Below, piece by piece: positions 19,866-38,064 of a stretch of DNA of 64,000 nt. Under the pieces are notes generated by a model. The model did not search any database. It was given only the letters and a program-made list of their open reading frames with translations, and had not been told where the DNA came from. Within the stretch, counting starts at the first letter, position 1. Each line of letters starts with the position of its first letter. Source of the DNA: Gallionella sp. (lineage in GTDB: Bacteria; Pseudomonadota; Gammaproteobacteria; Burkholderiales; Gallionellaceae); the NCBI GenBank assembly GCA_028707275.1, contig JAQTUP010000002.1:59198-123197 (forward strand). The letters are read 5' to 3'. Made by a program: the position numbers and the translations under genes.

Positions 19866-20000
19866 GGTGTTTCATTTACCCGGCCAGATGAACTCCACCC
19901 GAATGCCGCTCGGCTCAAGACACATCATGTGTTTCGCAGGTCCCGCCCCAGTAGTTCCATCCCCTTTTCAAACGCATTGCCGCTCCTGAAGGCGCGCTCC
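19866..20000 (-). pseudogene. Frameshifted 3' remnant of a VOC/glyoxalase-family gene (paralog of 25433-25834)
   Basis: The reverse strand translates to ...ELLGRDL / KHMMCLEPSGIRVEFIWPGK*, which matches the C-terminus of the intact VOC gene (KHMMCYEPSGIRVEFTWPGN*). Roughly 75% nucleotide identity over about 70 nt. Confidence 0.5.
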
Positions 20001-20042
20001 CCTGCCATCGGGACAGCGCACGGCTCCTGGCAGAGTTTTTAA

Positions 20043-20160
20043 CTGATGTTACGCAGTAACATCCGTCGTGCAATCAACTTCGCCGATGGCAGACCGGCGG
20101 CTGGTTACTGGCACCGCCAAAGTAACTGCCTGCCTGCGGCGGGCAGGCCGATCTGCGCCC
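20043..20160. repeat. Truncated copy (5' ~110 bp) of the MITE-like repeat family
   Basis: It begins with the palindrome ctgatgttacgcagtaacatc, followed by caatcaacttcgccg and a ggctggttactg...caaagtaac hairpin homologous to the copy at 52846. Confidence 0.5.
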
Positions 20161-20163
20161 TGC

Positions 20164-21018: not shown

Positions 21019-21019
21019 G

Positions 21020-21260
21020 TTAGCCACCACATCCCCTCCCCCTTGCGGGGGGAGGGCTAGGGAGGTGAAGTCGCACTTGGACGCGCGAATAATATCATCC
21101 CCTCCCCCTTGCAGGGGGAGGGCCAGGGAGGGGGTAGAAACGCTGGCGTTCCACGACGCCACCCCCATCCGAGCGTGTGTTGCTGGGGCGCATGCCCCGT
21201 ACAACCACGGTCTACCCCTTGCGGGTGCAACCTTCCCCCTGCAAGGGGGAAGGAACTGGT
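21020..21260. repeat. Three GC-rich palindromic hairpin repeats (cccctcccccttgc-ggggggaggg type) in the divergent promoter region
   Basis: The copies lie at about 21030, 21097 and 21228. Each is a perfect or near-perfect stem-loop. Confidence 0.5.
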
Positions 21261-21416
21261 TCGGCTCTAATGAGCAATCCGGTTTAAATCCTTTGTCCAT
21301 GTTCACACCCGCCGTTTCATCTAAAGAATACCCGCATCTTCCCCTGAAAATTATCAGAGCAACAGTGACAGTCGGGTACAATTCAAAGATACTGTCCGCA
21401 AAACTTAGGGGTACAA

Positions 21417-22829: not shown

Positions 22830-23094
22830 TGCTAATTCGTTATCGATTCAGAAGGGCAGCTAATCGGCCCGAGTGGACTTCGTAGATTTACTGAAAAGAT
22901 TGTCTACGCAGGTCGGAGTGATGTCTGCTCCCAAAATAGAATTGGTCGTTGCTTGGCAACGTTTTGATGTCCATGGAATGTCGCCTGCAAACCCGCAAGC
23001 GGTGCATGCGTCTATCTAAATTCGTTGCCCGATTGACGCTCTACAAACGTCAACGAACTGGCCATAGGGTTTCATGAAAGCTTTCAGCGTTAAG

Positions 23095-25170
23095 CTAAGT
23101 ATCTAGCTCAGCTGTTAACAAGCCAGTCAAAGTGTCCAATAAGTCTTTTGGCAACAATTTAGAATAATCAGCCAAGACCGTCTCGGCAACGTGTCGCATC
23201 AGATCGCCTGCGTGTTTGTTTTTTGGTTTTAAGAAACCGAACGCAGTGATAATGCTTCCCTCAAGTTCATGATCATCTTTATGCAAGTATTCTTTTGCTA
23301 CTTGCATAGTCATGCCATTGAGGTACTCCACCTCAATGGTTTCCCGAGGCAACTGCGCGGGGCCCAATATTAAATTCTGCAAAGCATCAATGGCCCGTTG
23401 CCATCGTTCATGATCCCAGTTAGATATTGACATGTAACTATCCTCTTGATCGAGAATACCTTTGTCTTTTGCAAAGGCCGCATTTTCCCCTGCAATCGTT
23501 ACGACTAGTAATACAGGATCAAATAGTAACGACTCAAGGCCATCTCGAACTCCCGGTGATAAAACGTGCATTCGGCCTTTTGTTGCGCGCTCTCCATCCC
23601 AGTCAACTAGACCGAGAACACTTTGATTTCCTCCGGTAGATAGACCATCAACTAGTCTCATGACTTGTGCGCATCCAGCGTTCTTTTCGCCGCCAGATTC
23701 ATCTGTATTACCCACTTCCACGAAAACCAGCGAACGTTCTGAATTCAAGTGCGCCTTATAGCGCTGAAAAAGCAAGTCGTAGAGATTTGCATCTGTACGA
23801 CTTTCCACAAATATTTGACGTCTTCCATCAAAAGCAATAGAAAGAGTCGGCACGCCAACAGTAAGAAGTGAAAGCGCTAAGCTCTTGCTAACTTTGTCAA
23901 TTCGTGGACCGACAGGGTTCATCGAATAAATTGCTTCCTCAGGTGCGAGCGCTACGGTTGAAGGGCTATGGGTCGTAAGAATGACTGAAACGTTCTTGTC
24001 GCGAACGAGAACATTTTGAATGGTATTTAGCAAAGAAGCCGTCATGGATGGATGCAAGGGCGCATCTACTTCATCAAGTAGCAACAGTTTTGGAAACTCC
24101 TTTGCCTGACGACTGTCCTGTGAGTTGTAAAGACACAAAGCAAACGACATGAGAACTTTTTCACCAGAAGAAAGATCTTGAAATCGCATCTCTACAGTTG
24201 TGGAAAGCTTGTAGAGTTTAGGCTCATACGAGGCGATTTCGTGAAGTGGTGGGTAATCGACTCTAAAATCAAGGCGACATTCTTCTAAGATCTGATTTAC
24301 GAAATCCCAAGGCGGGGAGCCATACTCGGAAACAAACTCTTCTTGAGATAAATATCGCCTTGTAGGTTCCTCCGGTGGGGGATATTTTTGTAATCTGTCA
24401 TTATCGTGGATCAACTCACGATACCTAGTGAAAACGCGGCCAAAAGCTTGTTGAAATGGATCAACACCGCCCCAAAGCAAATTTTTATCTTGAAAAAAAG
24501 TGGACTGTGAAGAAACCAGAAAGGTCTCAGGCGAATACTGTTGAATTTTAGGCACTGCTTTACGCCAATGTTCATCGCCAATTTGATTAAAGGAGTTGCT
24601 ACCTACATTTGAGCCAGCCTGCTTAATATTCTGCTTGATGGAAGCTTCCACTTGCTCCGCTTTTGCGGGATCTGCCAAGACTCCACGCAATACCTCTACA
24701 GTTAGTGAATTAATTTTCTGGATATTAGAACAGTATTCGGCAGGAACTCCTTGATTAAGAGCATGCTGTTTGATGCCCGGCAACTGCTGTTCACGGTGAG
24801 TTTGCATAGTTGTAAACCATTGTGATCGCCTCGATTGATCTTTAGCGGGATCAAAGATGCCGGTATCTGTAGGAATGATTGACGCTGAGTCGAAAAGGCG
24901 AACATCAACGTTTAAATTGTTTGCAAGCGACGACCTTACCTGCCCCCCTTTTATCGCCGTTAGTAAGTGAGTTTTGCCAGATCCATTTCGCCCCGTCAGT
25001 ACTACAAACTTGGGCAAAGTGATCTCCTCCAGTTGCGTTATTGATTTATGAACCGATGCAAAAGTAAGTGTGTTTGACATAGTCTTAAGTTGTGCAAATC
25101 TTTCGTCTTGGAGTTTCAATATACCGGAAGGTATGGAGTAGTGCAGACCTCTGGCATGACAGTTTCCCAA
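23095..25170 (-). CDS. OLD-family ATP-dependent endonuclease (ABC-type ATPase plus C-terminal Toprim), class 1 stand-alone
   Basis: It has Walker A (LTGRNGSGKTHLL), an ABC signature-like LSSGEKVLMSFAL, Walker B (LLLLDEVDAPLH), and C-terminal Toprim-like E (IFVESRTD) and DxD (LVDWDGE) motifs. GC is about 45%, against ~60% in the flanks. An alternative start lies at 25080. Confidence 0.7.
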   Translation of the reverse strand: MGNCHARGLHYSIPSGILKLQDERFAQLKTMSNTLTFASVHKSITQLEEITLPKFVVLTGRNGSGKTHLLTAIKGGQVRSSLANNLNVDVRLFDSASIIPTDTGIFDPAKDQSRRSQWFTTMQTHREQQLPGIKQHALNQGVPAEYCSNIQKINSLTVEVLRGVLADPAKAEQVEASIKQNIKQAGSNVGSNSFNQIGDEHWRKAVPKIQQYSPETFLVSSQSTFFQDKNLLWGGVDPFQQAFGRVFTRYRELIHDNDRLQKYPPPEEPTRRYLSQEEFVSEYGSPPWDFVNQILEECRLDFRVDYPPLHEIASYEPKLYKLSTTVEMRFQDLSSGEKVLMSFALCLYNSQDSRQAKEFPKLLLLDEVDAPLHPSMTASLLNTIQNVLVRDKNVSVILTTHSPSTVALAPEEAIYSMNPVGPRIDKVSKSLALSLLTVGVPTLSIAFDGRRQIFVESRTDANLYDLLFQRYKAHLNSERSLVFVEVGNTDESGGEKNAGCAQVMRLVDGLSTGGNQSVLGLVDWDGERATKGRMHVLSPGVRDGLESLLFDPVLLVVTIAGENAAFAKDKGILDQEDSYMSISNWDHERWQRAIDALQNLILGPAQLPRETIEVEYLNGMTMQVAKEYLHKDDHELEGSIITAFGFLKPKNKHAGDLMRHVAETVLADYSKLLPKDLLDTLTGLLTAELDT

Positions 25171-25432
25171 CTTTCAATTACCAAATTACTCTCCGCAAGA
25201 GCCCACTCGTGCGAACCCGCTTGTGGCTGTTCAGAGCCAATAAGATAATTCTACTGTAAAGGCGGCTTCGGGGTGTGGTGCAGACATTCAAAACAATCTC
25301 GCCAACAGTTATTTTGTAAAACTACGATAGTCCGCTATGGCCGATAACCGGCCCGCCTCCTCATTGCGCAAACTCGTGTCGCCATGCGTACAAGCAGTAT
25401 GGCGAATTTGCACCACATAAGATTCCGTAGGC

Positions 25433-25834
25433 TCAATTCCCCGGCCAAGTGAACTCGACACGGATCCCGCTCGGTTCATAACACATCATGTGTTTCGTCG
25501 GCCCCTTGCCCAGCAGTTCAGGTGCAAACTCGATGGGCGTGCCGTTGTTCAGCAGCGTGGCATGGATGCGATTCAGATCTGCTTCGCTTTCGACCTGGAA
25601 GGCGACATGGTGCAGGCCTGTATTCCTGTCTTTGTCGAACGATGAGCCGGGTTCTTTTCTGATCGCCCAGAGCGTGACCATGGTCTTGCCGTCGCTGACA
25701 TAGATGGCAGGGTATTCAGGGTTCCTGCGCACTTCTTTCCAGCCCAGCAGGGTGATGAAGAAGTGCGCGCTTTCTTCCAGTTTGCTCACGGTAAGACCGA
25801 GGTGGTGTATGCCTTTGGTGACCGGGGTGTTCAT
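25433..25834 (-). CDS. VOC family protein (glyoxalase/bleomycin resistance/dioxygenase fold)
   Basis: A ~134-aa protein (GIHHLGLTVSKLEESAHFF...GLHHVAFQVES). Its start overlaps the isochorismatase-family stop by 4 nt. Confidence 0.75.
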   Translation of the reverse strand: MNTPVTKGIHHLGLTVSKLEESAHFFITLLGWKEVRRNPEYPAIYVSDGKTMVTLWAIRKEPGSSFDKDRNTGLHHVAFQVESEADLNRIHATLLNNGTPIEFAPELLGKGPTKHMMCYEPSGIRVEFTWPGN

Positions 25835-26463
25835 GCGGGCACCGCCAATCCGCGTGCGCGACGGTTGGAGAGGTAGATGGAATCCCGCTCCGGTTTTGTT
25901 CCTGCTGCCTGCATCGCGATCCATTCCCCGGTAGACATGACGGCGGCGAAGCGCGATTGCAGCACGACGCACATCACGCTGTGGATCTCTTCGGCGCTCG
26001 CGCGGCCAGCCCGGTTCTCATAGGGGACGGAACCCGAGGCATCGCTGATGTACTCCACTGCGTAGCCGTCGTGGAAGGCGTGCAGCATGGTCGAGAGGTT
26101 GCAGTTGTGGCTCATGTAGCCGGTCACGGTGAGCGTGTCGATGTCATGCGCGCACAGCCATTTATCCAGATCGGTATTCGCGAATGCACTCGGCATCATT
26201 TTGATCACAAGATGGTCGTGCGGACGCGCGGCAATTGTTTCGTGCAGCGCGCAACCGCTGCTGCCTTCCGCCATGATGGGGGACTGCTTGGGCAGGATGT
26301 TCTGCACGACAACGACCGGGATACCGGCACTGCTGGCCGCATCCATCATCTTGCCAATATTGGCGAGCGACTGTTGCGGGTCGGGGTGTTCGATAGGCAG
26401 TGCGTCCCCGAAGTAATCGTTCTGTACGTCGATGACGATCAAAGCGCGTTTGGGTTGAGGCAT
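25831..26463 (-). CDS. Isochorismatase-family cysteine hydrolase
   Basis: The conserved D-K-C triad context is present (ALIVIDVQNDY...TVTGYMSHNCNLSTM). Confidence 0.8.
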   Translation of the reverse strand: MPQPKRALIVIDVQNDYFGDALPIEHPDPQQSLANIGKMMDAASSAGIPVVVVQNILPKQSPIMAEGSSGCALHETIAARPHDHLVIKMMPSAFANTDLDKWLCAHDIDTLTVTGYMSHNCNLSTMLHAFHDGYAVEYISDASGSVPYENRAGRASAEEIHSVMCVVLQSRFAAVMSTGEWIAMQAAGTKPERDSIYLSNRRARGLAVPA

Positions 26464-26568
26464 GGTGGTCTCCTTGTGGGTGATGGAATGTAAGGTGACG
26501 CATCATCGCCTTGGGCGCGCATTTCAATCAGTGGCCCGAATGACTTTTTTAGATACAATCAGGCCATC

Positions 26569-27540
26569 ATGAAAAAACCAGCCCGCAACGCGGATAGTTA
26601 CGCGGTCGTCGTCTACGACGGCATCAGCCCATTCCATTTGTCGGTGCCGTGCATCCTTTTCAAAAAGGGCGGTAAGGACAACAGGGTGCCGGACTTCAAG
26701 GTGAAGCTGTGCGCAGTCGAGCCGTCTGTCATACAAACCAATGCCGGATACGCTATCCAGGTCACACAAGGCCTTGCCGCACTCAAAGGCGTCGGGACGA
26801 TCATCGTGCCCAGCTGGAACGACACCTCGGTGCCGCCGCCGAAGAGCCTGCTGGATGCCTTGCGCAAGGCGCATCAGCACGGCGCGCGTATCGTCAGTTT
26901 TTGTCTGGGCTCGTTCGTGCTGGCTGCGGCCGGGTTGCTGGCGGGACGGCGGGCGACGACGCACTGGGAATGGGCGGCCGAGTTGGCCGAACGCTATCCG
27001 GATATCGACGTGGAGCCGGATGTTTTGTACGTGGATGAAGGCGACATCGTCACCTCCGCCGGATGTGCGTCCGCCATCGATTGCTGCCTGCATCTGATAC
27101 GCAAGCAGCACGGCGCAGAGGTTGCCAATTCCATCGCGCGACGCATGGTCGTATCGCCATTCCGGCAGGGCGGACAAGCGCAATTCATCGAGCAGCCGGT
27201 ATTCGATTCCGCCGCACCGGACAGGCTGTCGCAGGTGATGGACTGGATGACGCAGCATCTGGATGTCGCGCATACGCTGGATGATCTGGCGGAACGTGCC
27301 TTGATGAGCCGCCGGACTTTTACTCGCCGGTTTCGCCAGGTGACCGGAACGACCGTTGGGACATGGTTGCTGAATCAACGTCTGGCATTGGCGCAACGCA
27401 TACTGGAAATGACCGACAAACCGATTGAGCTGGTGGCGGAAACGGCGGGATTTGCCTCGCCCGCCCTATTCCGCCGCAGTTTTGGACAGGCGTTCGGCGT
27501 AAAACCTTCAGTCTATCGCAGGGAGTTTCGCGGCGAGTAA
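26569..27540 (+). CDS. GlxA-family transcriptional regulator (DJ-1/PfpI domain plus AraC HTH)
   Basis: The N-terminal DJ-1/PfpI-like domain has a Cys (SFCLGSFVLA). The C-terminal AraC-type HTH is present (RRTFTRRFRQVTGTTVGTWLLNQRLALAQRIL). Confidence 0.8.
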   Translation: MKKPARNADSYAVVVYDGISPFHLSVPCILFKKGGKDNRVPDFKVKLCAVEPSVIQTNAGYAIQVTQGLAALKGVGTIIVPSWNDTSVPPPKSLLDALRKAHQHGARIVSFCLGSFVLAAAGLLAGRRATTHWEWAAELAERYPDIDVEPDVLYVDEGDIVTSAGCASAIDCCLHLIRKQHGAEVANSIARRMVVSPFRQGGQAQFIEQPVFDSAAPDRLSQVMDWMTQHLDVAHTLDDLAERALMSRRTFTRRFRQVTGTTVGTWLLNQRLALAQRILEMTDKPIELVAETAGFASPALFRRSFGQAFGVKPSVYRREFRGE

Positions 27541-27624
27541 ATCAGGCCGTCGATGAAATGAGCGTCCGCTACCGGGAAAATTTTTGAATGGGCAAAACTA
27601 AATAAGCCAGATCCGCCGCCGAGC

Positions 27625-27725
27625 CCTCCCTCTTACTTTTTCAATCCTTCATTCCAAACTGGCATTACTTTATCGGGCTACGCCAACGACAAGGAAAGGT
27701 ATTTTGACCAGGTCTGCAATCATCC
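27625..27725. repeat. Copy 2 of the ~95-nt intergenic repeat (see 18415-18510)
   Basis: Alignment to 18415-18510 at about 80% identity. Confidence 0.4.
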
Positions 27726-27879
27726 TGAGTTCAAAAAGCAAGCCACGTAATTACACTGATTATCACGGATAATCAAAAAATTAACTCGAACTCACCATCA
27801 CCTTTTTGATGATGGAACGAAAACTTATAACTTGATGTTTTATCTGATTTTATCCGCGCCCATATGTGGCGCAGAGTTT

Positions 27880-29475
27880 TTAAGGTTTATCGCTCACCGA
27901 GTGAAAATCCAGATCAAAGCGCTGCAAGTATTGTTTGAGTCGATGCGAGTCGTTGGCGCTGGTTTTTTGCATGCGGCTCCGGTTGAACAGGGTGCGCCCG
28001 GCCTCAGCCAGATTCCGGCTGTTTCGGCAAACCTGTATGACTTTTGCAAGCTGTAACTGATCGAACAAGTCGAGTTCGTCCAGAGCCTGTGGCGACAGCA
28101 CTTCGCGCAGTATGTCGGTGGACGCCGCATCACTCTTCGCGAAACTCGACCAGCCTTTTTGCAAGCGCAATATTTCTTCTGCGACAACCTCTTCCGTGAT
28201 GCGACCACCGGTCGCCAGTGTCGCCATACGCGTGATGCTGGAGTTGAGATCGCGAAAGTTGGCGCGCCACAACGCGGCTACAGAATTCGCAAAAGCCAGA
28301 TAGACTGCCCGGGCTGCCTTGTTGAAGCTGACCTTGTGACCGGCCTTGACGGTGAACTGGTGCAACTCGTGCTCAATGTTGGGTTCAAGGTCTTCAAGCC
28401 GATTTTTCAGCGAGGGCAATTCGTATGTCCACAAGTTGATGCGCGCGAGCAAATCTTCGCGAAATCTTCCCTGCAGGACCTGCTCATACAAATCGCGATT
28501 GGTTCCGGCAATCAACTGAAAGCTGCTGCTGACTTCATGATCTGAGCCGAAAGGCATGAAGGATTTCTCTTCTATCGCCCTGAGCAACATCGCCTGTTCG
28601 TCTGTACCCAATTCGCCCACCTCATCCAGGAACAGCAGTCCTCTGTCTGCTTCGCGCAGCAGCCCTGCGCGCGGACTCTGTGCGCCGGTAAAGGCGCCTT
28701 TGACATGGCCGAACAGTGCCGACATTGCGTTGTCGCCGCGCAGCGTGGCGCAGTTGACTTCAACCAGACGGCCGGTCAATTGCCCGCGTTGCTTCTTGAG
28801 TTCATAGATGCGTTTAGCGAGGCGCGATTTGTCGGCGCCAGTAGGTCCGGTCAGCAGAATCGGCGACGATGACTTGATAGACACGCGCTCCAGTTGCGAG
28901 ATCAGACTATTGAAGGCGGCGTTGCGGGTTTCGATGCCGCTTTTGAGATAGGTGATGCCATCCATCGCCTCGCGCTCGAAACGCTGAGCGATTTGATCGT
29001 AGCGCGACAGATCCAGGTCGATGACCTGATAACTGCCCCTCGGGTCATTATCTGCGGGCGAGGTTTGCAGCAGTTTGCCCGGGATGTAGCGCGCCTCGGT
29101 TAACAAATAAAGGCAGATTTGCGCAACATGTGTGCCCGTGGTGATGTGCACGTAATAGGAATTTTGCTCGGGATCGAAGCTATAGCTGCGGGTGAAATCC
29201 AGAAGCTGGCTGTACACCTCTTCAAAATCCCACGGGTTCTGGTAGTTCACAATGTAAGGCGTGATCCGCGTTTGTGGCGAGAGCGCCTGCATGTCGCGCA
29301 CCGTGAGGGCAGCCAGTTCAGCCTCATCCGGGTGGTGGATCAGGACAAATTCCGCGACGGGCAGCTCGGCTTGCATCAGTAACGAAACACTGGGTCGCCA
29401 GCGCTGGGAGCGGCAGCGTCCCAACCCGCCGTGATCCAGCCTCGAACCCAGAATGCCGATAACCACATTATTCAT
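27880..29475 (-). CDS. rtcR: Sigma-54-dependent transcriptional regulator RtcR (N-terminal CARF domain, AAA+ sigma-54 activator, C-terminal HTH)
   Basis: Colinear similarity to E. coli RtcR across the CARF region (NPWDFEEVY...HITTGTHVAQICL...IDLDLSRY), the AAA+ core (ILLTGPTGADKS, the GAFTGA motif) and the C-terminus. Confidence 0.9.
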   Translation of the reverse strand: MNNVVIGILGSRLDHGGLGRCRSQRWRPSVSLLMQAELPVAEFVLIHHPDEAELAALTVRDMQALSPQTRITPYIVNYQNPWDFEEVYSQLLDFTRSYSFDPEQNSYYVHITTGTHVAQICLYLLTEARYIPGKLLQTSPADNDPRGSYQVIDLDLSRYDQIAQRFEREAMDGITYLKSGIETRNAAFNSLISQLERVSIKSSSPILLTGPTGADKSRLAKRIYELKKQRGQLTGRLVEVNCATLRGDNAMSALFGHVKGAFTGAQSPRAGLLREADRGLLFLDEVGELGTDEQAMLLRAIEEKSFMPFGSDHEVSSSFQLIAGTNRDLYEQVLQGRFREDLLARINLWTYELPSLKNRLEDLEPNIEHELHQFTVKAGHKVSFNKAARAVYLAFANSVAALWRANFRDLNSSITRMATLATGGRITEEVVAEEILRLQKGWSSFAKSDAASTDILREVLSPQALDELDLFDQLQLAKVIQVCRNSRNLAEAGRTLFNRSRMQKTSANDSHRLKQYLQRFDLDFHSVSDKP

Positions 29476-29611
29476 ATCGATAGAGCGCTATCCGAAAAGA
29501 TATCTAATTCTACTGCGAAACCATGCCAGACATATACCACGAAAATTATCATCCAGAAAATAACCATAATTATCAATTAGATGTAAAATTTATGGATTGC
29601 ATCAGCTTTGC

Positions 29612-29627
29612 TGGCACAGCGATTGCA
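29612..29627 (+). promoter_or_regulatory. Sigma-54 (RpoN) -24/-12 promoter for rtcB
   Basis: TGGCAC-N5-TTGCA matches the consensus exactly, about 55 nt upstream of the rtcB ATG and divergent from rtcR. Confidence 0.7.
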
Positions 29628-29682
29628 ATGTAACCGGTACGCAGCAGAGATACCGAATAACAAAAATACCAGAGGTTGAACA

Positions 29683-30909
29683 ATGAATACACCATACGAA
29701 GTTATACACGATGCAGGGTCGCACCTTATCAAATCCTGGACGCGCGGCGTTCCGTTCGACGACAACTCCAGGCAGCAATTGCGCAATATCGCGCGGATGC
29801 CGTTTATTCACAAATGGGTAGCTGCGATGCCGGACGTACATTTGGGTAAAGGCGCCACGATAGGCAGCGTGATCCCGACCCTGGGTGCGGTAATCCCGGC
29901 AGCGGTAGGCGTGGATTTGGGATGCGGGATGATGGCGGTAAAAACCTCGTTGACGGCAGCGCAATTGCCGGATTCGCTGGGTGCGATGCGTAGCCAGATC
30001 GAGAAACGTGTGCCGCACGGGCGCTCGGCAGATTTGCGCGGTGGGCGCGATACCGGAAGCTGGGGGCGCGCGCCGGACGAAGTAATGACGGCGTGGGAGC
30101 CGCTGCGCGCAGGGTTTGAACGCCTGTGCGAAAAGCACCCGTTCCTGAAGAACACCAACAACCTCTGCCACCTTGGAACTTTGGGTACGGGCAACCATTT
30201 TGTGGAAATTTGCCTGGACGAATCCGATGCGGTTTGGGTGATGTTGCACAGCGGTTCGCGCGGCGTGGGGAATCGCATCGGCACACACTTTATCGAGGCC
30301 GCAAAGAAGGACATGGAGCGCTGGTTTATCAGCCTGCCGGACAAGGATTTGGCATATATCCCGGAGGGTAGCGAAAACTTCAGTGCTTATATCAGGGCTG
30401 TTTCCTGGGCGCAGGATTTTGCCCGCGTGAACCGCGAGCTGATGATGGCGAATACCTTGAGCGCGATGCGCGAAGTGATGAAAGTAAATTTTATCGTCGA
30501 CGTGGAGGCCGTGAATTGCCACCACAACTACATCAGCCAGGAGCACCATTATGGCAAAGACGTCTGGGTCACGCGCAAGGGCGCGGTGAGCGCGCGTCTG
30601 GGCGAGATGGGCATCATCCCGGGAAGCATGGGGGCGAAATCCTTCATCGTGCGCGGGCTGGGCAACGAGGAAAGTTTTTGTAGTTGCAGCCACGGTGCCG
30701 GCCGCGTGATGTCGCGTACCGAAGCCAAGCGTCGTGTGACGCTAGCCGAACATATCAAAGCCACGGAAGGCGTGGAATGCCGCAAAGATGCTGACGTAAT
30801 TGATGAAACGCCATCCGCTTACAAACCCATCGATCAGGTGATGGCGGCGCAAGCGGATCTGGTAGAAATCGTGCATACCTTGAAGCAGGTGGTCTGCGTC
30901 AAGGGATGA
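29683..30909 (+). CDS. rtcB: RNA-splicing ligase RtcB (3'-phosphate/5'-OH RNA ligase)
   Basis: A 408-aa protein with the conserved RtcB metal and GTP-binding histidines and the Cys-containing N-terminal motif. It is the canonical divergent partner of rtcR. Confidence 0.95.
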   Translation: MNTPYEVIHDAGSHLIKSWTRGVPFDDNSRQQLRNIARMPFIHKWVAAMPDVHLGKGATIGSVIPTLGAVIPAAVGVDLGCGMMAVKTSLTAAQLPDSLGAMRSQIEKRVPHGRSADLRGGRDTGSWGRAPDEVMTAWEPLRAGFERLCEKHPFLKNTNNLCHLGTLGTGNHFVEICLDESDAVWVMLHSGSRGVGNRIGTHFIEAAKKDMERWFISLPDKDLAYIPEGSENFSAYIRAVSWAQDFARVNRELMMANTLSAMREVMKVNFIVDVEAVNCHHNYISQEHHYGKDVWVTRKGAVSARLGEMGIIPGSMGAKSFIVRGLGNEESFCSCSHGAGRVMSRTEAKRRVTLAEHIKATEGVECRKDADVIDETPSAYKPIDQVMAAQADLVEIVHTLKQVVCVKG

Positions 30910-31015
30910 CAAGAGTTTGGTGCAAGGCTATGGCCTGCGGTGCAGATTCAACAGTCTGCCTGACGCCGCCGCCTCTGGCGACCTGCGTATCGGTGATAGC
31001 CCGACACTAAATAAT

Positions 31016-31088
31016 GCCGCCATAGCTCAGTCTGGTAGAGCACCGGGTAAAACCGGGCGTCGCGGGTTCGAATCCCGCTGGCGGCGCC
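31016..31088 (+). ncRNA. tRNA-like element with canonical acceptor, D and T arms but a shortened anticodon arm (4-bp stem, 6-nt loop GUAAAA); tRNA mimic or tRNA pseudogene
   Basis: GCCGCCA/TGGCGGC acceptor, GCTC-AGTCTGGTA-GAGC D-arm, GCGGG-TTCGAAT-CCCGC T-arm. The anticodon arm is 14 nt (CCGG-GTAAAA-CCGG) rather than 17. There is no encoded CCA. It abuts the next element with no spacer. Confidence 0.45.
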
Positions 31089-31162
31089 TTCGCTATAGCT
31101 CAGCCGGGTAGAGCGCTGAACTCATACTTCAGTTGTCGCCGGTTCGATTCCGGCTAGTGAAA
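31089..31162 (+). tRNA. tRNA-Met/Ile2-like (anticodon CAU) with an unusual U1-A72 first pair and a G4-U69 wobble
   Basis: A full cloverleaf: acceptor TTCGCTA/TAGTGAA, D-arm GCTC-AGCCGGGTA-GAGC, anticodon arm CTGAA-CTCATAC-TTCAG (CAU, A37), T-arm GCCGG-TTCGATT-CCGGC. Confidence 0.5.
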
Positions 31163-31414
31163 CTACCCTGTCACGGTAGTTGTAGAAAAGCATGACACCG
31201 GCAAGTCTCCCGGTGAAAGGTGTAATAAAACCGGGGCGTAACAGCAACACCCAAACCTCGATTTCTGCACACCCGACATCAGCCCGGAGGTTGCCTTGTA
31301 GCAAGGTTAGACGTGCGCGCGATTGGCTTCAGGCAGCTTGCCCGCACGCCACGACGTTATAAGCCGACAAACGGGCGGAGGCTTGCCACTTTAATTATGC
31401 AGAAGGGACGCATC

Positions 31415-32587
31415 ATGAAGTTGTTTGACATCGAATACAAAGAAATCATCATTTCCGAATCGCAACGCGGGTTGCTGTTCAAGGACAAGCAGTTCGCCAG
31501 GGTATTGATGCCCGGCGTACACAAGATGCTCGATTACATGAACCGCTACCAGGTGCAGGTGTTCGAGGTACTGAAAACTTTGCAGGAGGGCGTATCCAAA
31601 GAGGTCATTTACCTGGCAGAGCTGCACACCGGGGCTTTTGCAGCGCACTTGCAGGCATGGGAAACCGCCGAGAACGAAATCGGGCTGGTGTACCAGAACA
31701 ACGTACTCAAAGACATCAAGGCACCTGCGCTGCGCGGCGCATACTGGAAAACGCAGCATGAAATCCGTGTCGAAAAAATCGACATCGGCGAGGATTTTGC
31801 CGTCGACAAAAAACTGGCGGCCTTGCTATCCAATTGCAAGGATGATCTGCTGAAACTGGCCGCAGCCAATGCTATCGCGAGTGCCACCGTACCCGAGCGC
31901 CATGTCGGTTTTATGGAGGTGGACGGTGTAGCGGTTGCAACGCTGGCTACAGGAGCGCATGTTTGGTGGAAGTTCAACCGCAAAATCGCGGTGACACTGC
32001 TGGATTGCCGTTTGCAGAACATGGAAGTCAACGGGCAGGAAATCCTGACCAGAGATCGCGTGAGCCTGCGTGTCAATTTGTCCGCTACCTGGCAGATCAA
32101 GCAGGCCGAGGTGGTAAAGGCCGAGTTGGCCGATGCCCGGGACTTTTTGTACCGCGAACTACAGCTGGCTTTGCGCGCTGTTGTCAGTACGCAGACGCTG
32201 GATGAACTTCTGGTCGACAAAAACTCGTTGAACCAGCAAGTGCAGGCCATCGTAGCGAACAAAGCGGCAGAATATGGGATCGAGGTCAAATCCGTCGGTG
32301 CGCGCGACATCGTGTTGCCCGGAGAAATGAAAGCCATCCTGACGCAGGTCGTCGAGGCGCAAAAAGTGGCCGAAGCCAACCTGATCAGGCGTCACGAAGA
32401 AACCCAGGCCACGCGCTCGCTGCACAACACGGCCAAGGTGATGGAGGGCAACCCCGTATTGCTGCGTTTGAAGGAGCTTGAGATTCTGGAGAAGATTTCA
32501 GGTCGCATCAGCACGCTGAATGTTTATGGCGGACTGGACGGTGTCATGAACGATATGGTCAGATTGACTGACCGTAGCGCAAAGTAG
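31415..32587 (+). CDS. Soluble SPFH/band-7 domain protein with a ~180-aa inserted domain
   Basis: An SPFH N-terminal strand (IISESQRGLLFKDKQFARVLMPGVHKM) and a C-terminal SPFH core plus coiled coil (DRVSLRVNLSATWQI ... IVLPGEMKAILTQVVEAQKVAEANLIRRHEE) are present. No TM segment. The longer annotated ORF start at 31313 is unlikely. Confidence 0.7.
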   Translation: MKLFDIEYKEIIISESQRGLLFKDKQFARVLMPGVHKMLDYMNRYQVQVFEVLKTLQEGVSKEVIYLAELHTGAFAAHLQAWETAENEIGLVYQNNVLKDIKAPALRGAYWKTQHEIRVEKIDIGEDFAVDKKLAALLSNCKDDLLKLAAANAIASATVPERHVGFMEVDGVAVATLATGAHVWWKFNRKIAVTLLDCRLQNMEVNGQEILTRDRVSLRVNLSATWQIKQAEVVKAELADARDFLYRELQLALRAVVSTQTLDELLVDKNSLNQQVQAIVANKAAEYGIEVKSVGARDIVLPGEMKAILTQVVEAQKVAEANLIRRHEETQATRSLHNTAKVMEGNPVLLRLKELEILEKISGRISTLNVYGGLDGVMNDMVRLTDRSAK

Positions 32588-32753
32588 CGCCCGGTGTCAG
32601 ACTGGTCGCCCCGAAAGTCTGAATTAAAATTCAAGCAACGATGACATAGCCTTTGGGTTTGAAATCCGGGCACCGGATGAGCCGCGCAAGGGGAGCGCAG
32701 CAGGGAATACCGGCGATAAAAAAGGAGCCAGGCGATTGACCTGACTCCTTGTT

Positions 32754-32798
32754 TGGCAGGAACGAGCAGACTCGAACTGCGGACCCCTTGGATGTCGA
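32754..32798. repeat. 45-nt direct repeat of the tRNA-Val 3' end (distal attachment-site-like boundary of a genomic island)
   Basis: The sequence tggcaggaacgagcagactcgaactgcggaccccttggatgtcga matches 37937-37981, the 3' part of the intact tRNA-Val, at 43 of 45 positions. Confidence 0.7.
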
Positions 32799-32938
32799 AA
32801 TAGCATTCAGCCTGTAACACATTGATTTAATTTATAATGCGCCATGGTCTTCCGTTACAACCATGCACTACAACGCACAACGATGCATAACCAAAACCGT
32901 CAAAAGTCCGGCAGACTAACATAACTCATTCACAGCAC

Positions 32939-33469
32939 TCATTCCCATTCAGTCTTAGCCCGTGCAATCACTTCACTGAGCAGACTGGGACGGATGTGCA
33001 AAGTTGTTTGTTGCGGGATGGCAGCTAAAAGCGCTAAAATTTCAAAGGAAGTACGTAGCTTTTGGCGAACCGCACGGAGCAACAGCCCCAAAGTGCCATG
33101 CGCACTGATATTCAAACTTTTAGCAGCTAATCGTGCAGCAGTATCATCGGTGAGCAACATTCCGACTGAGTGATCCAAACATAGCGTCAGCGCTTCCCGC
33201 TCGCCGTTATGCAAAGTATAAATCGCCGCCATGGCATTAATTCTGGCTGAAGGTGTCGGCGGTAACTGACGAATCAAATTGACGTTTGCATGTTGCAATG
33301 CCTGCGGGCGATGATGCTGTACCTCAAGCCAAACCGCATTGGGTACAAATACAGCTGCGTAATCACTCAACACGTCCAAGGCATTCAACTCATCCAAATG
33401 TATCAATGGACCAGCATCAGCAACAACCACAGAGTGCCTAGTTACTGCCATGCAATCCCCACTCAACAT
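32939..33469 (-). CDS. PIN-like toxin (DUF3368 family) of a type II toxin-antitoxin pair
   Basis: PIN-like acidic residues (VVADAGPLIHLDEL...LLTDD). It overlaps the upstream small antitoxin gene, the typical UPF0175/DUF3368 pairing. Confidence 0.6.
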   Translation of the reverse strand: MLSGDCMAVTRHSVVVADAGPLIHLDELNALDVLSDYAAVFVPNAVWLEVQHHRPQALQHANVNLIRQLPPTPSARINAMAAIYTLHNGEREALTLCLDHSVGMLLTDDTAARLAAKSLNISAHGTLGLLLRAVRQKLRTSFEILALLAAIPQQTTLHIRPSLLSEVIARAKTEWE

Positions 33470-33635
33470 CTTCCTGAATAAAAGACTCAGTTAGTACATC
33501 TTGATGCGATTCCAAATAGCGGCGAAGTGACTCATTGACCACTTCTTCCATGTTACTTGCCCAACCTTGTCTCACTAGGGTTTGCGCCTGCTGCCAAAGT
33601 TGATCGGGTATTTCAGCGTGAATAGCGCTACTCAT
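33438..33635 (-). CDS. UPF0175-family antitoxin
   Basis: A 65-aa protein (IPDQLWQQAQTLVRQG...EEVVNESLRRYLESH) lying immediately upstream of the PIN toxin and overlapping it. Confidence 0.55.
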   Translation of the reverse strand: MSSAIHAEIPDQLWQQAQTLVRQGWASNMEEVVNESLRRYLESHQDVLTESFIQEDVEWGLHGSN

Positions 33636-33767
33636 GACTAGCCTCCTAATTAACTCTACAAATACACACTGTGACTATATCGTTAATCCACACTTTGCGC
33701 AGTAGATTGTCGATTATTAAAATAAGATCACCGTGGCGGTAACTTTCTACGGCCTTTTTTGAGAAAC

Positions 33768-34322
33768 TTAAACCCCCTCAGGAAGAGGTTTAAACCTATC
33801 TCCTTCTTGCGGCCAGCGCTTTGCTCGGCTTTGGAATGCCCGTAGTTCATCAATATCCAAAGTGGCGGCAATAACGAAATCATTATCCCCACCCCGCACA
33901 CGTGCAATATCTCGCATAAATGGCTCTTTAGCTGGCGATCTGACGCGACTATCGCCGTACTTCCGATTATTTACCAGAATGGTATATGCATGCACATCGA
34001 GTGCGGCAGATTCAATCAGGGCGGAAAAAGTATCTAAATCCTGATTCCAGCTTAACACCATCAAAGCGTCAACTTTACCTTGGAACTTCACTCGCTCTTT
34101 ACTGTTCTGCAACTCAGAACAAGCCATGACACCAAAGTATGCATCATTGTGAATATATACAGGCTTAGTGCGCTTGTATTTTATCTTTGAAAAGGCCCAA
34201 GTCTTACCAAATCTAGAGGTGAGCTGTTTATCCTCACCGACAGCAGGTTCCAGTTTTGGCTGCCAAATCTTTACAGTAGAGGGAAAACCAAGCCGGTTGT
34301 CTAATGTGGACCCTGTAGTCAA
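33768..34322 (-). CDS. Hypothetical protein (184 aa) on the island, with an IS3 insertion 14 bp upstream of its start
   Basis: An ORF with no recognisable family. GC is about 45%. The annotated start may not be the original one, because IS3 abuts it. Confidence 0.45.
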   Translation of the reverse strand: MTTGSTLDNRLGFPSTVKIWQPKLEPAVGEDKQLTSRFGKTWAFSKIKYKRTKPVYIHNDAYFGVMACSELQNSKERVKFQGKVDALMVLSWNQDLDTFSALIESAALDVHAYTILVNNRKYGDSRVRSPAKEPFMRDIARVRGGDNDFVIAATLDIDELRAFQSRAKRWPQEGDRFKPLPEGV

Positions 34323-34340
34323 GACAGTTATGTGCTGAGT

Positions 34341-35363
34341 TTAAGCTATGTACTCGACTTCACTTACAGCTGGACGGCGCTGCCCCGGTTTTGCCTTTGC
34401 TTTTTCTTCTGCTTTTACCTTGCTTATTGGTGCTTTCCCCGTCTCTGATTCAGATTCTGTTTCTGATTTTTCTTTTTTTCCGGCGCGAGGATATTTGTCC
34501 AGAATCATTGCGCCTCCGCCGATTGCGGTTCGATACACGACGTCAGGCGTCACGTTTTTCAACGACTGGTGCGGACGTCTGACGTTGTAAAAGTCAAAGT
34601 ACTCCGTCAGCCCGATCATCAGTTCGACCATCGTGGAATAGCCCTTCAGATAGACATCCTCATGCTTGACGCTGCGCCAGAGCCGCTCAACGCAGAGCCG
34701 CTCAACGAAGATGTTGTCGAAGGCTCGCCCCTGGCCATCCATGCTAATGACGATCCCCTCCCTTTGCAAAACACCTGTAAAGGCCTCGCTGGTGAACTGC
34801 GAGCCCTGGTCGCTGTTGAAGATCTCCGGCTTGCCATGGGCGCGAATAGCCTCTTCAAGGCAATCGACGCAAAACGTCGCATCCATGCTGTTGCTGATTC
34901 GCCAGCCGAGCACGCGCCGAGAGTACCAGTCGATAATCGCCACCAGGTACACGAAGCCTCGCGGCAACCGGAGATAGGTGATATCCGTACTCCAGACCTG
35001 GTTCGGCCTGACCACCGCAACCCCGCGCAGCAGATAGGGATAGACCTTGTGCTCAGGGTGCGCGCGACTGGTGTTCGGCCCCGGCGCAATAGCCGCCAAA
35101 CCCATTGCCTGCATCAAGCGTTGTACCCGTTTTCGATTGACGATGTGTCCTGCGGTCTTGAGAAAAATCACCATCTTGCGGCTGCCGTAAAACGGATGGA
35201 GGGTATATTCTTCGTCAATCAGGCGGCTGTGCAACAGGTCAAGCTCGTCCAGCGGCTTCGGCTTTTGATGCGCATAGATGGTGGCTCGCGATACCGCCGA
35301 CAGCCGACATTGCTGCGCTACGCTCATCGTGTCCGCATGCGTAACCCATGCTTGCCGCATCAT
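34341..35363 (-). CDS. IS3-family transposase OrfB (DDE integrase core)
   Basis: The rve domain is present (WSTDITYL...DWYSRRVLGW...HGKPEIFNSDQGSQFTS). Confidence 0.85.
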   Translation of the reverse strand: MMRQAWVTHADTMSVAQQCRLSAVSRATIYAHQKPKPLDELDLLHSRLIDEEYTLHPFYGSRKMVIFLKTAGHIVNRKRVQRLMQAMGLAAIAPGPNTSRAHPEHKVYPYLLRGVAVVRPNQVWSTDITYLRLPRGFVYLVAIIDWYSRRVLGWRISNSMDATFCVDCLEEAIRAHGKPEIFNSDQGSQFTSEAFTGVLQREGIVISMDGQGRAFDNIFVERLCVERLWRSVKHEDVYLKGYSTMVELMIGLTEYFDFYNVRRPHQSLKNVTPDVVYRTAIGGGAMILDKYPRAGKKEKSETESESETGKAPISKVKAEEKAKAKPGQRRPAVSEVEYIA

Positions 35364-35659
35364 GACAGGCTGATCCCAGACTTTTTTTTGAGCCAGTCCA
35401 GTTCCACCTTCAGTTTGCCAATCTCGCTGTACAGCAATTCTGGTTCCTTATACGCGGCCACCGGTTTGGGGCCGCGCTTGCCTTCAAACAGCGTCTTGGC
35501 CTGATCCTGGATCTCCTTCTTCCACAAACCTACTTGCGCCGGATGAACGCCGTACTCCAGACCAATCTGATTGACCGTCTTCGTTCCTCGAATTGCTTCA
35601 AGACCCACCTTCGCCTTAAGTTCCGGCGTGTGGAACTGCCGCTGCTTTGATTCGCTCAT
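35360..35659 (-). CDS. IS3-family transposase OrfA (HTH)
   Basis: A 99-aa protein with an HTH and a leucine-zipper tail (KLKVELDWLKKK). Its end is at the frameshift site. Confidence 0.8.
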   Translation of the reverse strand: MSESKQRQFHTPELKAKVGLEAIRGTKTVNQIGLEYGVHPAQVGLWKKEIQDQAKTLFEGKRGPKPVAAYKEPELLYSEIGKLKVELDWLKKKSGISLS

Positions 35660-35752
35660 TTTGCTTATTCCCTATGAACAGCGCACAGCTTAAACCATTG
35701 TCTTAAAAACTGGGGCCACTATAGGCTCATGCGATCCCCAAGGTCAGCAACA

Positions 35753-37600
35753 TTAAGCCGCCCAAATTAAGCGACATAGTTCGAAAAGCAATTTTTGCCT
35801 GTCTTCCAACTCTTCTTTCCCAAATTTATCCATTGCCCGAAAAGTAAGCCCATGAGCATCGGAAAAACCAGCAAAATCTAATTTACTTTTATAACTATCC
35901 TCACGAAGTGTCTCATTCCAATACAGAGTATTGGAATAGGATTTTAGTTTTGCCGAATATATCTCGTTATTGCTGGATTGATTGTCCCGGCCCTTTAACA
36001 GTAATACACCACCAAGACGATTACGCTCTTGCTCGAAACGCTCCTCATCTCCATCAAACAGAGCTAAATTTTCAGCATTACGCGAAAGGATATGTTCGAC
36101 ATGAAAACCGTTTTTCGCACCGCGTAAAGTTACCAAATCCTTTAACTCATGCTTCATTTTCAACTTCATTCCATCGGCGAGGAGACGTTCTACTCTTCCA
36201 AATAGATATCGAACGAAACGGGTATTCAAACGGTCAATCGACATTTGACGGAATAGCGGATAACCGAACGCATTGCCAATAGGAATTGCTCTTCGCTCTG
36301 CCAGCTCCGCAATCAGGTGTGTCTCAATAATTGCAGAAATATCTGCGGCGGGTTTTTCCCTAATCTCAATACTAATGTCGTACAGACGAGATGCAAATTC
36401 ATTTGAATCGTATCCGCCTTGTATCTGCAAAAGCGAGAACATCCTGTCAAGCCCTGCCGAAACGGCATGGATTTTTTCAACCTCCTCTGGGTCATTAACG
36501 GCACATGCCGAAATGATGAGCATAAACTGGGTGTCCAACTCGTTGAGGTTGTTGAAATAGACTGCTGGGTATGCCGAATTCACCTGCGTTGTGGCACTCC
36601 ACAAACGAGCATACAAACTGGTGAAATATTTAAACGCACCATTCAGGAACAACTTAACTTCACCCGTGTTGTGATCAAGCTTCAATGACGCGTTTATATC
36701 GGATTTGAACATCTCACGGTGGTAATCACCATCGAAACGCTGTCCAGATTTTTTGTTGCTAGCAAACTTTGCTTTCAGCCAGTAACGAAAGAAGCTATCG
36801 ATTTCATCTCCCCTGAATGAATTGACTGCTTGTAGCTGATTTTCCCAGAGTTCGTTGAACTTACCGCTATCAAGTTCAATCTTATCAATCTGCCCAAGCA
36901 ATTTTCCTTTCAGAATTTCATAAGGTTTGAGTCGAACACCTCTGTCATTGATAACCTCAAATACCATTGGCACATGATTGGTTTCTACGGACAGGTTTAT
37001 CAAAACCAAGCGGAATAAAAAATAATGAACAAATGTATCAAATTGATGCAACGAGCCCAACCGTTTATCTAATTCCAAACTTATTAATTGATAATTTTTA
37101 ACCATATTGGCAGCAGTAATGCCCGTACTAATGTTTATCCCCGATGGATCACTGCCCGCCATCAAAGCTTCAAGTACAAGCCTATGCTTCACATGGTTCA
37201 TCCAGAACTCATGCTCAGTGCCTGAGTACCCTGAAATTTTTCGCTCTATCCAACCTGCTGTTTTTGAGCCCAGCAATTTTGCTTTGGTTAACAGACTAAA
37301 CAGAATCAGCGTCAAGGTTGTTAACCTTTGTTGACCATCAACCACAAATACCCGACCGCCTACTGTGTTAGTCACATAAGTATTGAGGTAGTACCACGGG
37401 TAGCGAGAATTAATATTCTCCTTGTTCGGCTCCAAGGAAGAGAATTTCTTGTAAGCATCATCAAATTGATAAAATACATCATCAAGAAGCCGTTTGACTG
37501 GCTCCTCAGTCCATTTGTAATCTCGTTGATAAAAATCTATGAAATAGACTGTTGTTGAAAAGGTTTGATCTAAATTCTGTTTGTCTGGCTGAATTTCCAC
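35753..37600 (-). CDS. GmrSD-like type IV (modification-dependent) restriction endonuclease: DUF262 (ParB-like NTPase, DGQQR) plus DUF1524 (HNH-like)
   Basis: The N-terminal FVVDGQQRLTTL motif and the C-terminal HNH-like FHVEHILSRN...N...N motif are present. GC is very low, about 36%. Confidence 0.75.
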   Translation of the reverse strand: MEIQPDKQNLDQTFSTTVYFIDFYQRDYKWTEEPVKRLLDDVFYQFDDAYKKFSSLEPNKENINSRYPWYYLNTYVTNTVGGRVFVVDGQQRLTTLTLILFSLLTKAKLLGSKTAGWIERKISGYSGTEHEFWMNHVKHRLVLEALMAGSDPSGINISTGITAANMVKNYQLISLELDKRLGSLHQFDTFVHYFLFRLVLINLSVETNHVPMVFEVINDRGVRLKPYEILKGKLLGQIDKIELDSGKFNELWENQLQAVNSFRGDEIDSFFRYWLKAKFASNKKSGQRFDGDYHREMFKSDINASLKLDHNTGEVKLFLNGAFKYFTSLYARLWSATTQVNSAYPAVYFNNLNELDTQFMLIISACAVNDPEEVEKIHAVSAGLDRMFSLLQIQGGYDSNEFASRLYDISIEIREKPAADISAIIETHLIAELAERRAIPIGNAFGYPLFRQMSIDRLNTRFVRYLFGRVERLLADGMKLKMKHELKDLVTLRGAKNGFHVEHILSRNAENLALFDGDEERFEQERNRLGGVLLLKGRDNQSSNNEIYSAKLKSYSNTLYWNETLREDSYKSKLDFAGFSDAHGLTFRAMDKFGKEELEDRQKLLFELCRLIWAA

Positions 37601-37936
37601 GATTTAATTCCTGATTATTGTTGTTCTATGAGGATGCAGTGCCTGTCGCAACCAAACCCCTTAGCTTTGGCAGAAACTTTGATGAAAGTAATTTAGGCTA
37701 TTCTTTTAGTGTTGCTGGGGCGGGTAAGCTAGTGCGAAGTAATGGAAGCAACTTATCAAAAAACTCAGATGGAACAGCTACAGTTCCTATATTACGATTT
37801 AAAGCGAAAAAAGAGGAGAAAAAAAAGTGGGGGGGGCAAATTTTTTGTATGTTCCTTTGTATGTTCAAAAACAACCACAAATCAAAAAAGGACTTGCGGA
37901 GATTATCCGTAAGTCCTTAATTTTAAACATAAATTC

Positions 37937-38013
37937 TGGTAGGAACGAGCAGACTCGAACTGCTGACCCCTTGGATGTCGACCAAGTGCTCTAACCAACT
38001 GAGCTACGCTCCT
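37937..38013 (-). tRNA. tRNA-Val (anticodon GAC), CCA encoded
   Basis: The reverse complement, AGGAGCGTAGCTCAGTTGGTTAGAGCACTTGGTCGACATCCAAGGGGTCAGCAGTTCGAGTCTGCTCGTTCCTACCA, folds as a canonical cloverleaf with GAC in the anticodon loop. Confidence 0.9.
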
Positions 38014-38064
38014 TTTGAAGAGCGCGAATTATATCCACATCCCTCGCACTTGGCAACCTCAATA

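Follow-up and report, generated by a model that had tools for sequence, protein, structure and literature searches.

A probable eroded remnant of a genomic island with anti-phage cargo at a tRNA-Val gene of Gallionella sp.

In a 64,000-nucleotide stretch of DNA from Gallionella sp. (GenBank assembly GCA_028707275.1, contig JAQTUP010000002.1, positions 59,198 to 123,197; hereafter the window, whose numbering we use throughout), a 5.2-kb segment of low-GC DNA lies between a gene for an SPFH/slipin protein and dnaB, with the 3' end of a tRNA-Val(GAC) gene at one end and a displaced copy of that 3' end at the other. We conclude that this segment, which we call the islet, is very probably the eroded remnant of a genomic island that integrated site-specifically into the tRNA gene, and we regard it as a real but ordinary island, a further example of a well-known kind. 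The repeat at its two ends, the composition of the enclosed DNA and the cargo carry this conclusion, and together they support the claim of an earlier note on this DNA that an island bounded by attL and attR attachment sites occupies the 3' end of tRNA-Val.

The repeat at tRNA-Val and the ends of the islet

The 45 nucleotides at the 3' end of tRNA-Val (37937-37981) are found again at the far side of the islet (32754-32798), in the same orientation and with two mismatches [repeat D1; 43 of 45 positions identical, start-to-start spacing 5183 bp]. No comparable 45-nucleotide match arose in 100 dinucleotide-preserving shuffles, giving a chance expectation of 0. ARAGORN calls no tRNA at the second copy, and neither does Rfam, even at E ≤ 1, which rules out a second tRNA gene at this position. 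The repeat described in the earlier note is thus confirmed, and the circumstance that the same note had named as telling against an island, namely that the copy belongs to another tRNA gene, does not hold. Read against the cloverleaf, the block of identity starts at the first anticodon-loop base and ends with CCA, which we take to be the anticodon-centred class of attachment (att) sites in tRNA genes (tDNAs). The displaced fragment is a terminal 3' piece on the same strand as tRNA-Val, it lies on the 3' side of this minus-strand gene in the intergenic region between the SPFH gene and the PIN-like toxin gene described below, and the short open reading frames (ORFs) that overlap it gave no Pfam match when the adjoining island sequence was scanned in six frames. 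Neither junction is an assembly artefact, since both are present at 100% identity in independent Logan contigs from run SRR22315508, one corresponding to window 29860-33010 (L144) and the other to window 35528-37994 (L001).

Each of the two copies is directly followed by a terminator-like structure, and these structures indicate which copy is native. The terminator directly 3' of the displaced fragment is the strongest terminator-like site in the region, and it is conserved in a relative, the contig L086, which is 94.6% identical to window 27891-32780 and shares the SPFH gene, the terminator and the start of the tRNA-Val 3' end before the contig stops. Because the strongest terminator adjoins the fragment and is conserved in L086, we regard the fragment and this terminator as the original end of the gene. 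The sequence 3' of the complete tRNA gene also folds stably [37870-37936, -17.4 kcal/mol, z = -3.3, with an overlapping site in the terminator scan], and we take its hairpin (37918-37884) to have entered with the element. Compared with the functional copy, the displaced copy carries two substitutions, A73G at the discriminator position and A49C, the second of which disrupts the 49-65 pair of the T stem. Since L086 has the A73 form at the position of the displaced fragment, at least A73G arose in the fragment after displacement, and the integration is therefore not recent. The end of the L086 contig (6191-6217, equivalent to window 32754-32780) falls one base before a G/T difference between the two window copies, and may represent an assembly-graph branch produced by island-bearing and island-free strains in run SRR22387761.

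From this anatomy we infer that an element with a copy of the 3' 45 nucleotides of tRNA-Val(GAC) would have recombined into the chromosomal gene, presumably through a tyrosine integrase. The copy brought by the element would have regenerated the tRNA at 37937-38013, and the original 3' end, together with its terminator, would have been pushed 5.2 kb away to 32754-32798.

The islet also differs from its surroundings in composition. The GC content of 32799-37936 is 45.8%, and 42.7% if the insertion sequence (IS) described below is left out, versus 54.8% for the whole window, 55.1% for the left flank and 53.6% for the right flank, in agreement with the earlier description of the enclosed DNA as AT-rich. 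The value of about 36% that had been given for the GmrSD-like gene is too low; its coding sequence (CDS) has a GC content of 41.2%, and only the 336-bp spacer adjoining the tRNA gene is at 36.9%. The segment beyond the IS (32799-34298) has 45.7%, and the IS itself a host-like 53.9%.

Defence genes and a pseudogene in the islet

All the cargo genes are on the minus strand (Table 1). The GmrSD-family nuclease gene is intact, and its product matches both halves of the family above the curated cut-offs [GmrSD_N, PF03235, 80.2 bits versus 33.2; GmrSD_C, PF07510, that is DUF1524 of the His-Me/HNH type, 37.8 bits versus 23], so that the DUF262-DUF1524 assignment in the earlier note stands. As in Eco94GmrSD, BrxU, SspE and HEC-06, a single chain of about 600 amino acids (aa) in a defence context combines an N-terminal DUF262 domain that contains a DGQQR motif with a C-terminal DUF1524 domain that contains an E-H motif. 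Unlike these characterised members, to which it is only distantly related, the window protein finds its closest solved structure at E 9e-6 over about 100 residues, and its top PADLOC models, HEC-06 and the Orf5 set, score about 80 bits.

A scan of metagenome contigs recovered 55 loci with homologues of this protein, at 57-100% identity over the matched segment and many of them partial, and a further two distant matches at about 21%. Homologues of 60-89% identity lie in unrelated metagenome contexts, 55 in all, and similarity at the DNA level ends at the CDS boundaries. In a full-length alignment with 30 homologues of 61-82% identity, 194 of the 615 positions are invariant among the 31 members, including IDFYQRDYKW, VDGQQRLTTLTL and E502/H503; VDGQQRLTTLTL is constant in the 31 sequences, with the DGQQR motif at residue 88, and both E502 and H503 are constant in 31 of 31. 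Mutation of the residues equivalent to the DGQQR and E-H motifs abolishes defence by HEC-06 and BrxU (Payne et al. 2024, bioRxiv 10.1101/2024.01.29.577857). Judged from its family membership and from the parallel with GmrSD, BrxU and HEC-06, the nuclease of the islet would cut modified phage DNA by means of the DGQQR NTPase motif and the E-H nuclease motif.

In agreement with a published note that genes of the GmrSD type often lie within Hma and type I restriction-modification (R-M) systems, type I R-M genes are directly alongside in 19 of the 30 loci with full-length homologues, in the order hsdM-hsdS-X-hsdR. Unlike the rest of its clade, which usually has this arrangement, the copy in the islet stands alone, because no trace of hsd genes is found in the window. 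In three other loci (L117, 5847-7169; L118, 13642-15100; and L120), a GmrSD branch with 61% identity ends an hsdR-ATPase-hsdM-hsdS-GmrSD block beside a P4-type integrase, which in L118 adjoins tRNA-Met; these are intact tRNA-integrated R-M/defence islands with the same nuclease family.

The 184-aa ORF (33768-34322) had been considered an orphan in the earlier note. It is instead the remnant of a nitrilase gene associated with UG5 reverse transcriptases (RTs), cut at the end of the IS, and matches positions 731-889 of the 907 in the PADLOC RT_UG5-nitrilase model with E 5e-74. The homologues of the ORF are nitrilase proteins of about 190-310 aa as called, several of which are cut by contig ends. 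The point from which five loci show translated nitrilase homology is exactly 34301, where the inverted repeat of the IS ends on its outer side, and the TTG "start" of the ORF falls within the IS end. According to the alignment, nitrilase residues 1-97 are absent, including the FPELS Glu region, whose Glu we assign to the Glu-Lys-Cys triad of the nitrilase superfamily; what survives is the C-terminal part of about 175 residues. Near the stop, one extra G in a run of G (33772-33776) shifts the frame for the last 14 or so codons. The alternative frame, GFKFLKKGRRKLPPR followed by a stop codon, can be seen directly in the sequence after the run, and the conserved tail GF(K/R)L..R(K/R)LPP is legible in this next frame. 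The cut at the IS end and the frameshift together make the 184-aa ORF a doubly damaged pseudogene.

Although the remnant matches the nitrilase part of the PADLOC model, as the UG5 RT-nitrilase modules do, no UG5 RT is present in the islet. With the RT, the catalytic Glu region and the 3' frame lost, this is a pseudogene and not a UG5 RT-nitrilase system, and membership of an intact UG5 family of defence-associated reverse transcriptases (DRTs) is rejected. The flank upstream of the nitrilase is informative in three relatives (L083, L084 and L085). In L084 and L085, a UG5-type RT of about 785 aa is encoded directly upstream and matches positions 10-634 of the same model with E 1e-182 or better. 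In these two loci (L084, 2616-5830; L085, 7563-10801) the RT is encoded next to the nitrilase (266-286 aa) in an ORF of its own, with an overlap between the two in L084, and both match the fused RT_UG5-nitrilase model far better than they do RT_UG5_small or RTasNitrilase; the arrangement is a split form of the fused RT-nitrilase architecture. The third relative, L083 (7617-10909), has a Septu pair (PtuA, 507 aa; PtuB, 273 aa) followed by a stand-alone UG5-type nitrilase of 302 aa (P0017), with no RT nearby, in a locus inside a type I R-M island. UG5 systems with a fused or a separate nitrilase have been described (Mestre et al. 2022, PMC9226505), and DRT11, a UG5 system, protects against phage (PMC13436386).

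At the end of the islet that adjoins the displaced fragment lies a toxin-antitoxin (TA) pair, for which the earlier note had proposed DUF3368 and UPF0175 partners. The toxin is a candidate member of the DUF3368 type: the PADLOC model PDC-S70 matches it over its full length with E 5e-26, but the Pfam DUF3368 match, of 23.7 bits, is below the 27.3-bit cut-off and covers the C-terminal 46-residue model only, and PIN_4 matches weakly. The antitoxin assignment falls away, since UPF0175 does not match the 65-aa antitoxin ORF even at E ≤ 10 and is therefore rejected. The ORF has sub-threshold matches instead to ribbon-helix-helix and related antitoxin models [RHH_8, E 0.0024; VapB_antitoxin, E 0.017; ParD-type, E 0.0025]. 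The antitoxin ORF is located upstream of the toxin ORF and overlaps it, and in having a small upstream ORF that overlaps a PIN-like ORF of about 170 aa the pair resembles VapBC-type pairs, from which it differs in that the Pfam matches of both partners are below the curated cut-offs. By inspection, the toxin has acidic residues (D18, E91 and D108/D109) as PIN domains do, and the pair differs from DUF3368 pairs, whose usual named partner is UPF0175, in the identity of its antitoxin. The TA pair, like the GmrSD-like gene, is full length, keeps its conserved motifs and looks intact in sequence, and both are probably still functional.

Between the GmrSD-like gene and the pseudogene lies an IS3-family element similar to ISPpu29, in line with the earlier note [NCBIfam transpos_IS3, 259 bits; Pfam rve and HTH_21]. 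It has imperfect terminal inverted repeats (34301-34326 and 35699-35724) and is 69% identical at the nucleotide level to ISPpu29 copies, with the similarity starting near 35729. No flanking 3-bp target duplication was seen by sequence inspection for any plausible choice of ends. The host-type IS3 would have entered the island later, and a deletion adjacent to it would have taken the RT gene together with about 97 codons from the start of the nitrilase gene, and probably anything between these and the GmrSD gene. The pseudogene and the displaced fragment would then have gone on decaying.

Table 1. Features of the islet and its ends (window positions).
Feature	Positions	Strand	Basis
Intrinsic terminator native to tRNA-Val, now 3' of the displaced fragment	32722-32750	-	12-pair stem and T-run; fold z = -4.3; kept in L086
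attR, displaced tRNA-Val 3' fragment	32754-32798	-	Repeat D1, 43/45; no tRNA call
PIN-like toxin, DUF3368 type; likely start 33451	32939-33469	-	PADLOC PDC-S70, Pfam
Putative antitoxin, 65 aa, ribbon-helix-helix-like	33438-33635	-	Sub-threshold matches
Nitrilase pseudogene, 3' two-thirds of a UG5 RT-associated gene	33728-34301	-	PADLOC, homology, alignment
IS3-family IS, ISPpu29-like	34299-35729	-	transpos_IS3, rve, HTH_21, inverted repeats
IS3 orfB	34341-35363	-	
IS3 orfA	35360-35659	-	
IS3 A-run slippery site	35377-35389	-	
GmrSD-family (DUF262 + DUF1524) nuclease gene, intact, 615 aa, alone	35753-37600	-	Pfam, PADLOC, alignment
AT-rich spacer, 336 bp, at the usual integrase position	37601-37936	.	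Composition; six-frame Pfam
Terminator-like hairpin and T-run directly 3' of the regenerated tRNA, taken as element-borne	37884-37918	-	RNA fold; terminator scan
attL, tRNA-Val 3' 45 nt, probably element-derived	37937-37981	-	Repeat D1
tRNA-Val(GAC), regenerated target gene	37937-38013	-	ARAGORN; Rfam tRNA, 62.8 bits; repeat D1
Candidate sigma-70-like promoter (consensus match), TTGCCA-17-TATAAT, 5' of tRNA-Val in the dnaB/tRNA spacer	38028-38056	-	11/12 consensus matches

Integrase loss and the history of the islet

The earlier note had reported neither a tyrosine nor a serine integrase, and our searches agree. No integrase was detected by Pfam on the main ORFs of the islet, by six-frame Pfam at E ≤ 1 on the parts that belong to neither the GmrSD-like gene nor the IS (32799-34300 and 37595-37940), or by tblastn of the whole 64-kb window with P4-type integrases of the sort found beside some GmrSD homologues. 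The sole recombinase in the islet is the DDE transposase of the IS3 element. The AT-rich spacer, at the position where an integrase is usually encoded, contains no domain or coding remnant detectable by six-frame Pfam at E ≤ 1. Homopolymer runs (A8, G7 and T6) occur in this spacer at 37815-37850, about 220-250 nucleotides upstream of the GmrSD-like start. With the integrase gone, the islet cannot excise by itself, and on the best reading it is immobile unless helped in trans.

Such help is at the centre of two other readings of the islet. CIMEs are elements without integration and transfer genes that nevertheless retain attL and attR (ICEberg 2.0, PMC6323972), and the islet could be a passenger of this sort, which lost its own integrase and is moved through usable att sites by a cognate integrase, either one encoded elsewhere in the genome or one brought by an incoming element with tRNA-Val as its target. 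Both att copies are complete at 45 nucleotides and 43 of 45 identical, the GmrSD gene is intact, as is the TA pair, and, as in CIMEs, both att sites are kept in the absence of integration and transfer genes. We nevertheless consider this quite unlikely, because no integrase was detected with the queries used in the 64-kb window, to which this search was confined, the displaced copy has two substitutions, the cargo is partly pseudogenised and the searches revealed no second copy of the islet; unlike the described CIMEs, the islet has no known helper or tandem partner and one of its att copies is decaying. Very unlikely, in our estimation, is the bolder suggestion that the islet is a minimal integrase-less defence cassette, mobile by way of a borrowed tRNA-Val integrase, in which the IS3-driven loss of the abortive-infection RT-nitrilase module was favoured by selection instead of occurring by accident. 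If this were true, defence genes with nothing but att flanks would be in circulation among environmental iron-oxidising bacteria. The preferred reading remains that of an inactive remnant.

The IS raises a question about the history of the remnant, rather than its identity, as it is located exactly between a segment of 41.2% GC (the GmrSD CDS) and one of 45.7% (32799-34298). The islet may therefore be the fused remainder of two elements in tandem at tRNA-Val, one with the GmrSD gene and the other with the DRT and TA genes, from which the internal att site and the integrase or integrases were deleted by way of the IS3. The lack of a target duplication around the IS and the absence of any related locus in which both segments occur together are consistent with this possibility, and tandem arrays at tDNAs are known (PMC4383910). 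However, no third att-like site is left in the islet (with as many as 2 mismatches allowed, none of the 16-mers that make up the att sequence has a match there), the difference in GC is small, and one mosaic island explains the data equally well. Hence we hold two tandem elements to be possible but somewhat unlikely, and continue to speak of one eroded island.

Relatives of the flanking genes bear on the question of whether an island exists at all. A scan of genome contigs with DnaB recovered 80 dnaB loci of related species (L002-L081) that share the rpsF-to-dnaB block; in none is dnaB followed by tRNA-Val or accompanied by an island gene, and synteny goes no further than the stop codon of dnaB. 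The SPFH homologues are 96% identical in aa sequence in L086 and 84% in L087 and L088. The earlier note had proposed that finding the island genes in related genomes, at native GC and without the repeat, would argue against an island, and with 0 of the 80 dnaB loci holding one, that objection fails. In viral contigs, the att core has 0 matches, and the PIN toxin and the nitrilase have no relatives.

Several observations weigh against the reading of the islet as an integrated island. The scans did not recover an empty site with the SPFH gene, tRNA-Val and dnaB in succession, and the closest relative, L086, stops inside the tRNA, so that the insertion is deduced from anatomy and not from a comparison before and after the event. 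L087 and L088 have other genes and no tRNA-Val after the SPFH gene, L002-L004 have no tRNA-Val after dnaB, an exact-pattern scan of metagenome contigs for the terminator-tRNA junction gave 0 matches, and the scans found no related island with the same gene set. Furthermore, the ends of the IS are uncertain by about 3-5 nucleotides, and the lack of a target duplication is a weaker argument for that reason. In principle, then, the 45-nucleotide copy could have arisen by local duplication of part of the tRNA gene, with native genes enclosed, and the fact that an empty site was never shown directly agrees with this. We give this explanation almost no credence, since the GC content is about 12 points below that of the flanks, the cargo is typical of mobile elements and has homologues scattered in unrelated contexts, a separate native terminator that is conserved in L086 lies 3' of the displaced fragment, and the island genes are absent from the related dnaB and SPFH loci. 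We also reject the possibility that these are simply native genes of low GC. An integrated island that has since eroded thus remains our interpretation.

The surrounding locus and the place of the islet among known islands

The flanking SPFH/slipin protein is 100% identical to a protein of an NCBI Gallionella sp. metagenome-assembled genome (MAG), and the DnaB of the window shares 93% identity with its counterpart in an uncultured betaproteobacterial MAG; look-ups of the exact sequences of DnaB and the IS3 OrfB returned no record. Compared with L086, the window has two extra segments. The first (19957-25437) contains an EamA transporter, a GntR-aminotransferase regulator and a 691-aa AAA_21/AAA_15 ATPase (23095-25170) that could be a defence-type ATPase, and the second (25835-27891) contains isochorismatase and AraC/DJ-1 genes. 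Pfam searches of the large ORFs in these extra segments (19-27.5 kb) detected no integrase. Further along, rtcR (27880-29475) and rtcB (29683-30909) are followed, directly 3' of rtcB, by two back-to-back tRNA-like genes (31016-31163). The same pair is present in the relatives (L086, 4446-4593; L087, 9608-9758; L088, 3327-3477), with apparent anticodons of Leu(taa) and Met in L086 and of Pro and Pro in L087 and L088; in the window one is Met and the other undetermined. Across the junction of the pair, the Rfam model YrlA (Y RNA-like) scores 37.9 bits, below its gathering score of 69. The pair looks like an RtcB-linked module of tRNA-like RNAs, and not like ordinary tRNA genes.

The Islander approach recognises tDNA islands by a tDNA and its cognate fragment, their orientation, a length of 2-200 kb and an integrase (Hudson, Lau and Williams 2015, PMC4383910). 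In the islet, a tRNA gene is paired with a fragment that is 3' terminal, downstream and in the same orientation, and that lies outside any tRNA or protein domain. As in Islander islands, the regenerated tRNA and the displaced fragment mark the ends of foreign low-GC cargo, and the length, 5.2 kb, fits the range of 2-200 kb. Unlike them, the islet has no integrase gene, for which reason it would fail the Islander integrase filter; Islander islands are putatively active, whereas this is an inactive remnant.

The reading of the earlier note stands with corrections on four points: the identity of the pseudogene, the antitoxin family, the GC content of the GmrSD-like gene and the ancestry of its clade within R-M operons. 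Its description of a decaying, defence-oriented island is supported by the pseudogene, the mutated fragment and the anti-phage character of the cargo, which would have comprised a GmrSD-family nuclease, a UG5 RT/nitrilase module and a PIN-like TA pair. Beyond annotation, the islet matters little. In annotation, the 184-aa ORF should be recorded as a pseudogene of a UG5-type nitrilase and not as a hypothetical protein. Otherwise, the erosion of a defence island integrated in a tRNA gene can be followed here cleanly and on a small scale: the integrase has gone, most of the RT module went with an IS-linked deletion and the displaced fragment is mutating, while a single-gene nuclease and a TA pair survive. 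The islet also indicates that a GmrSD-like gene can last by itself even though its clade normally sits inside type I R-M operons.

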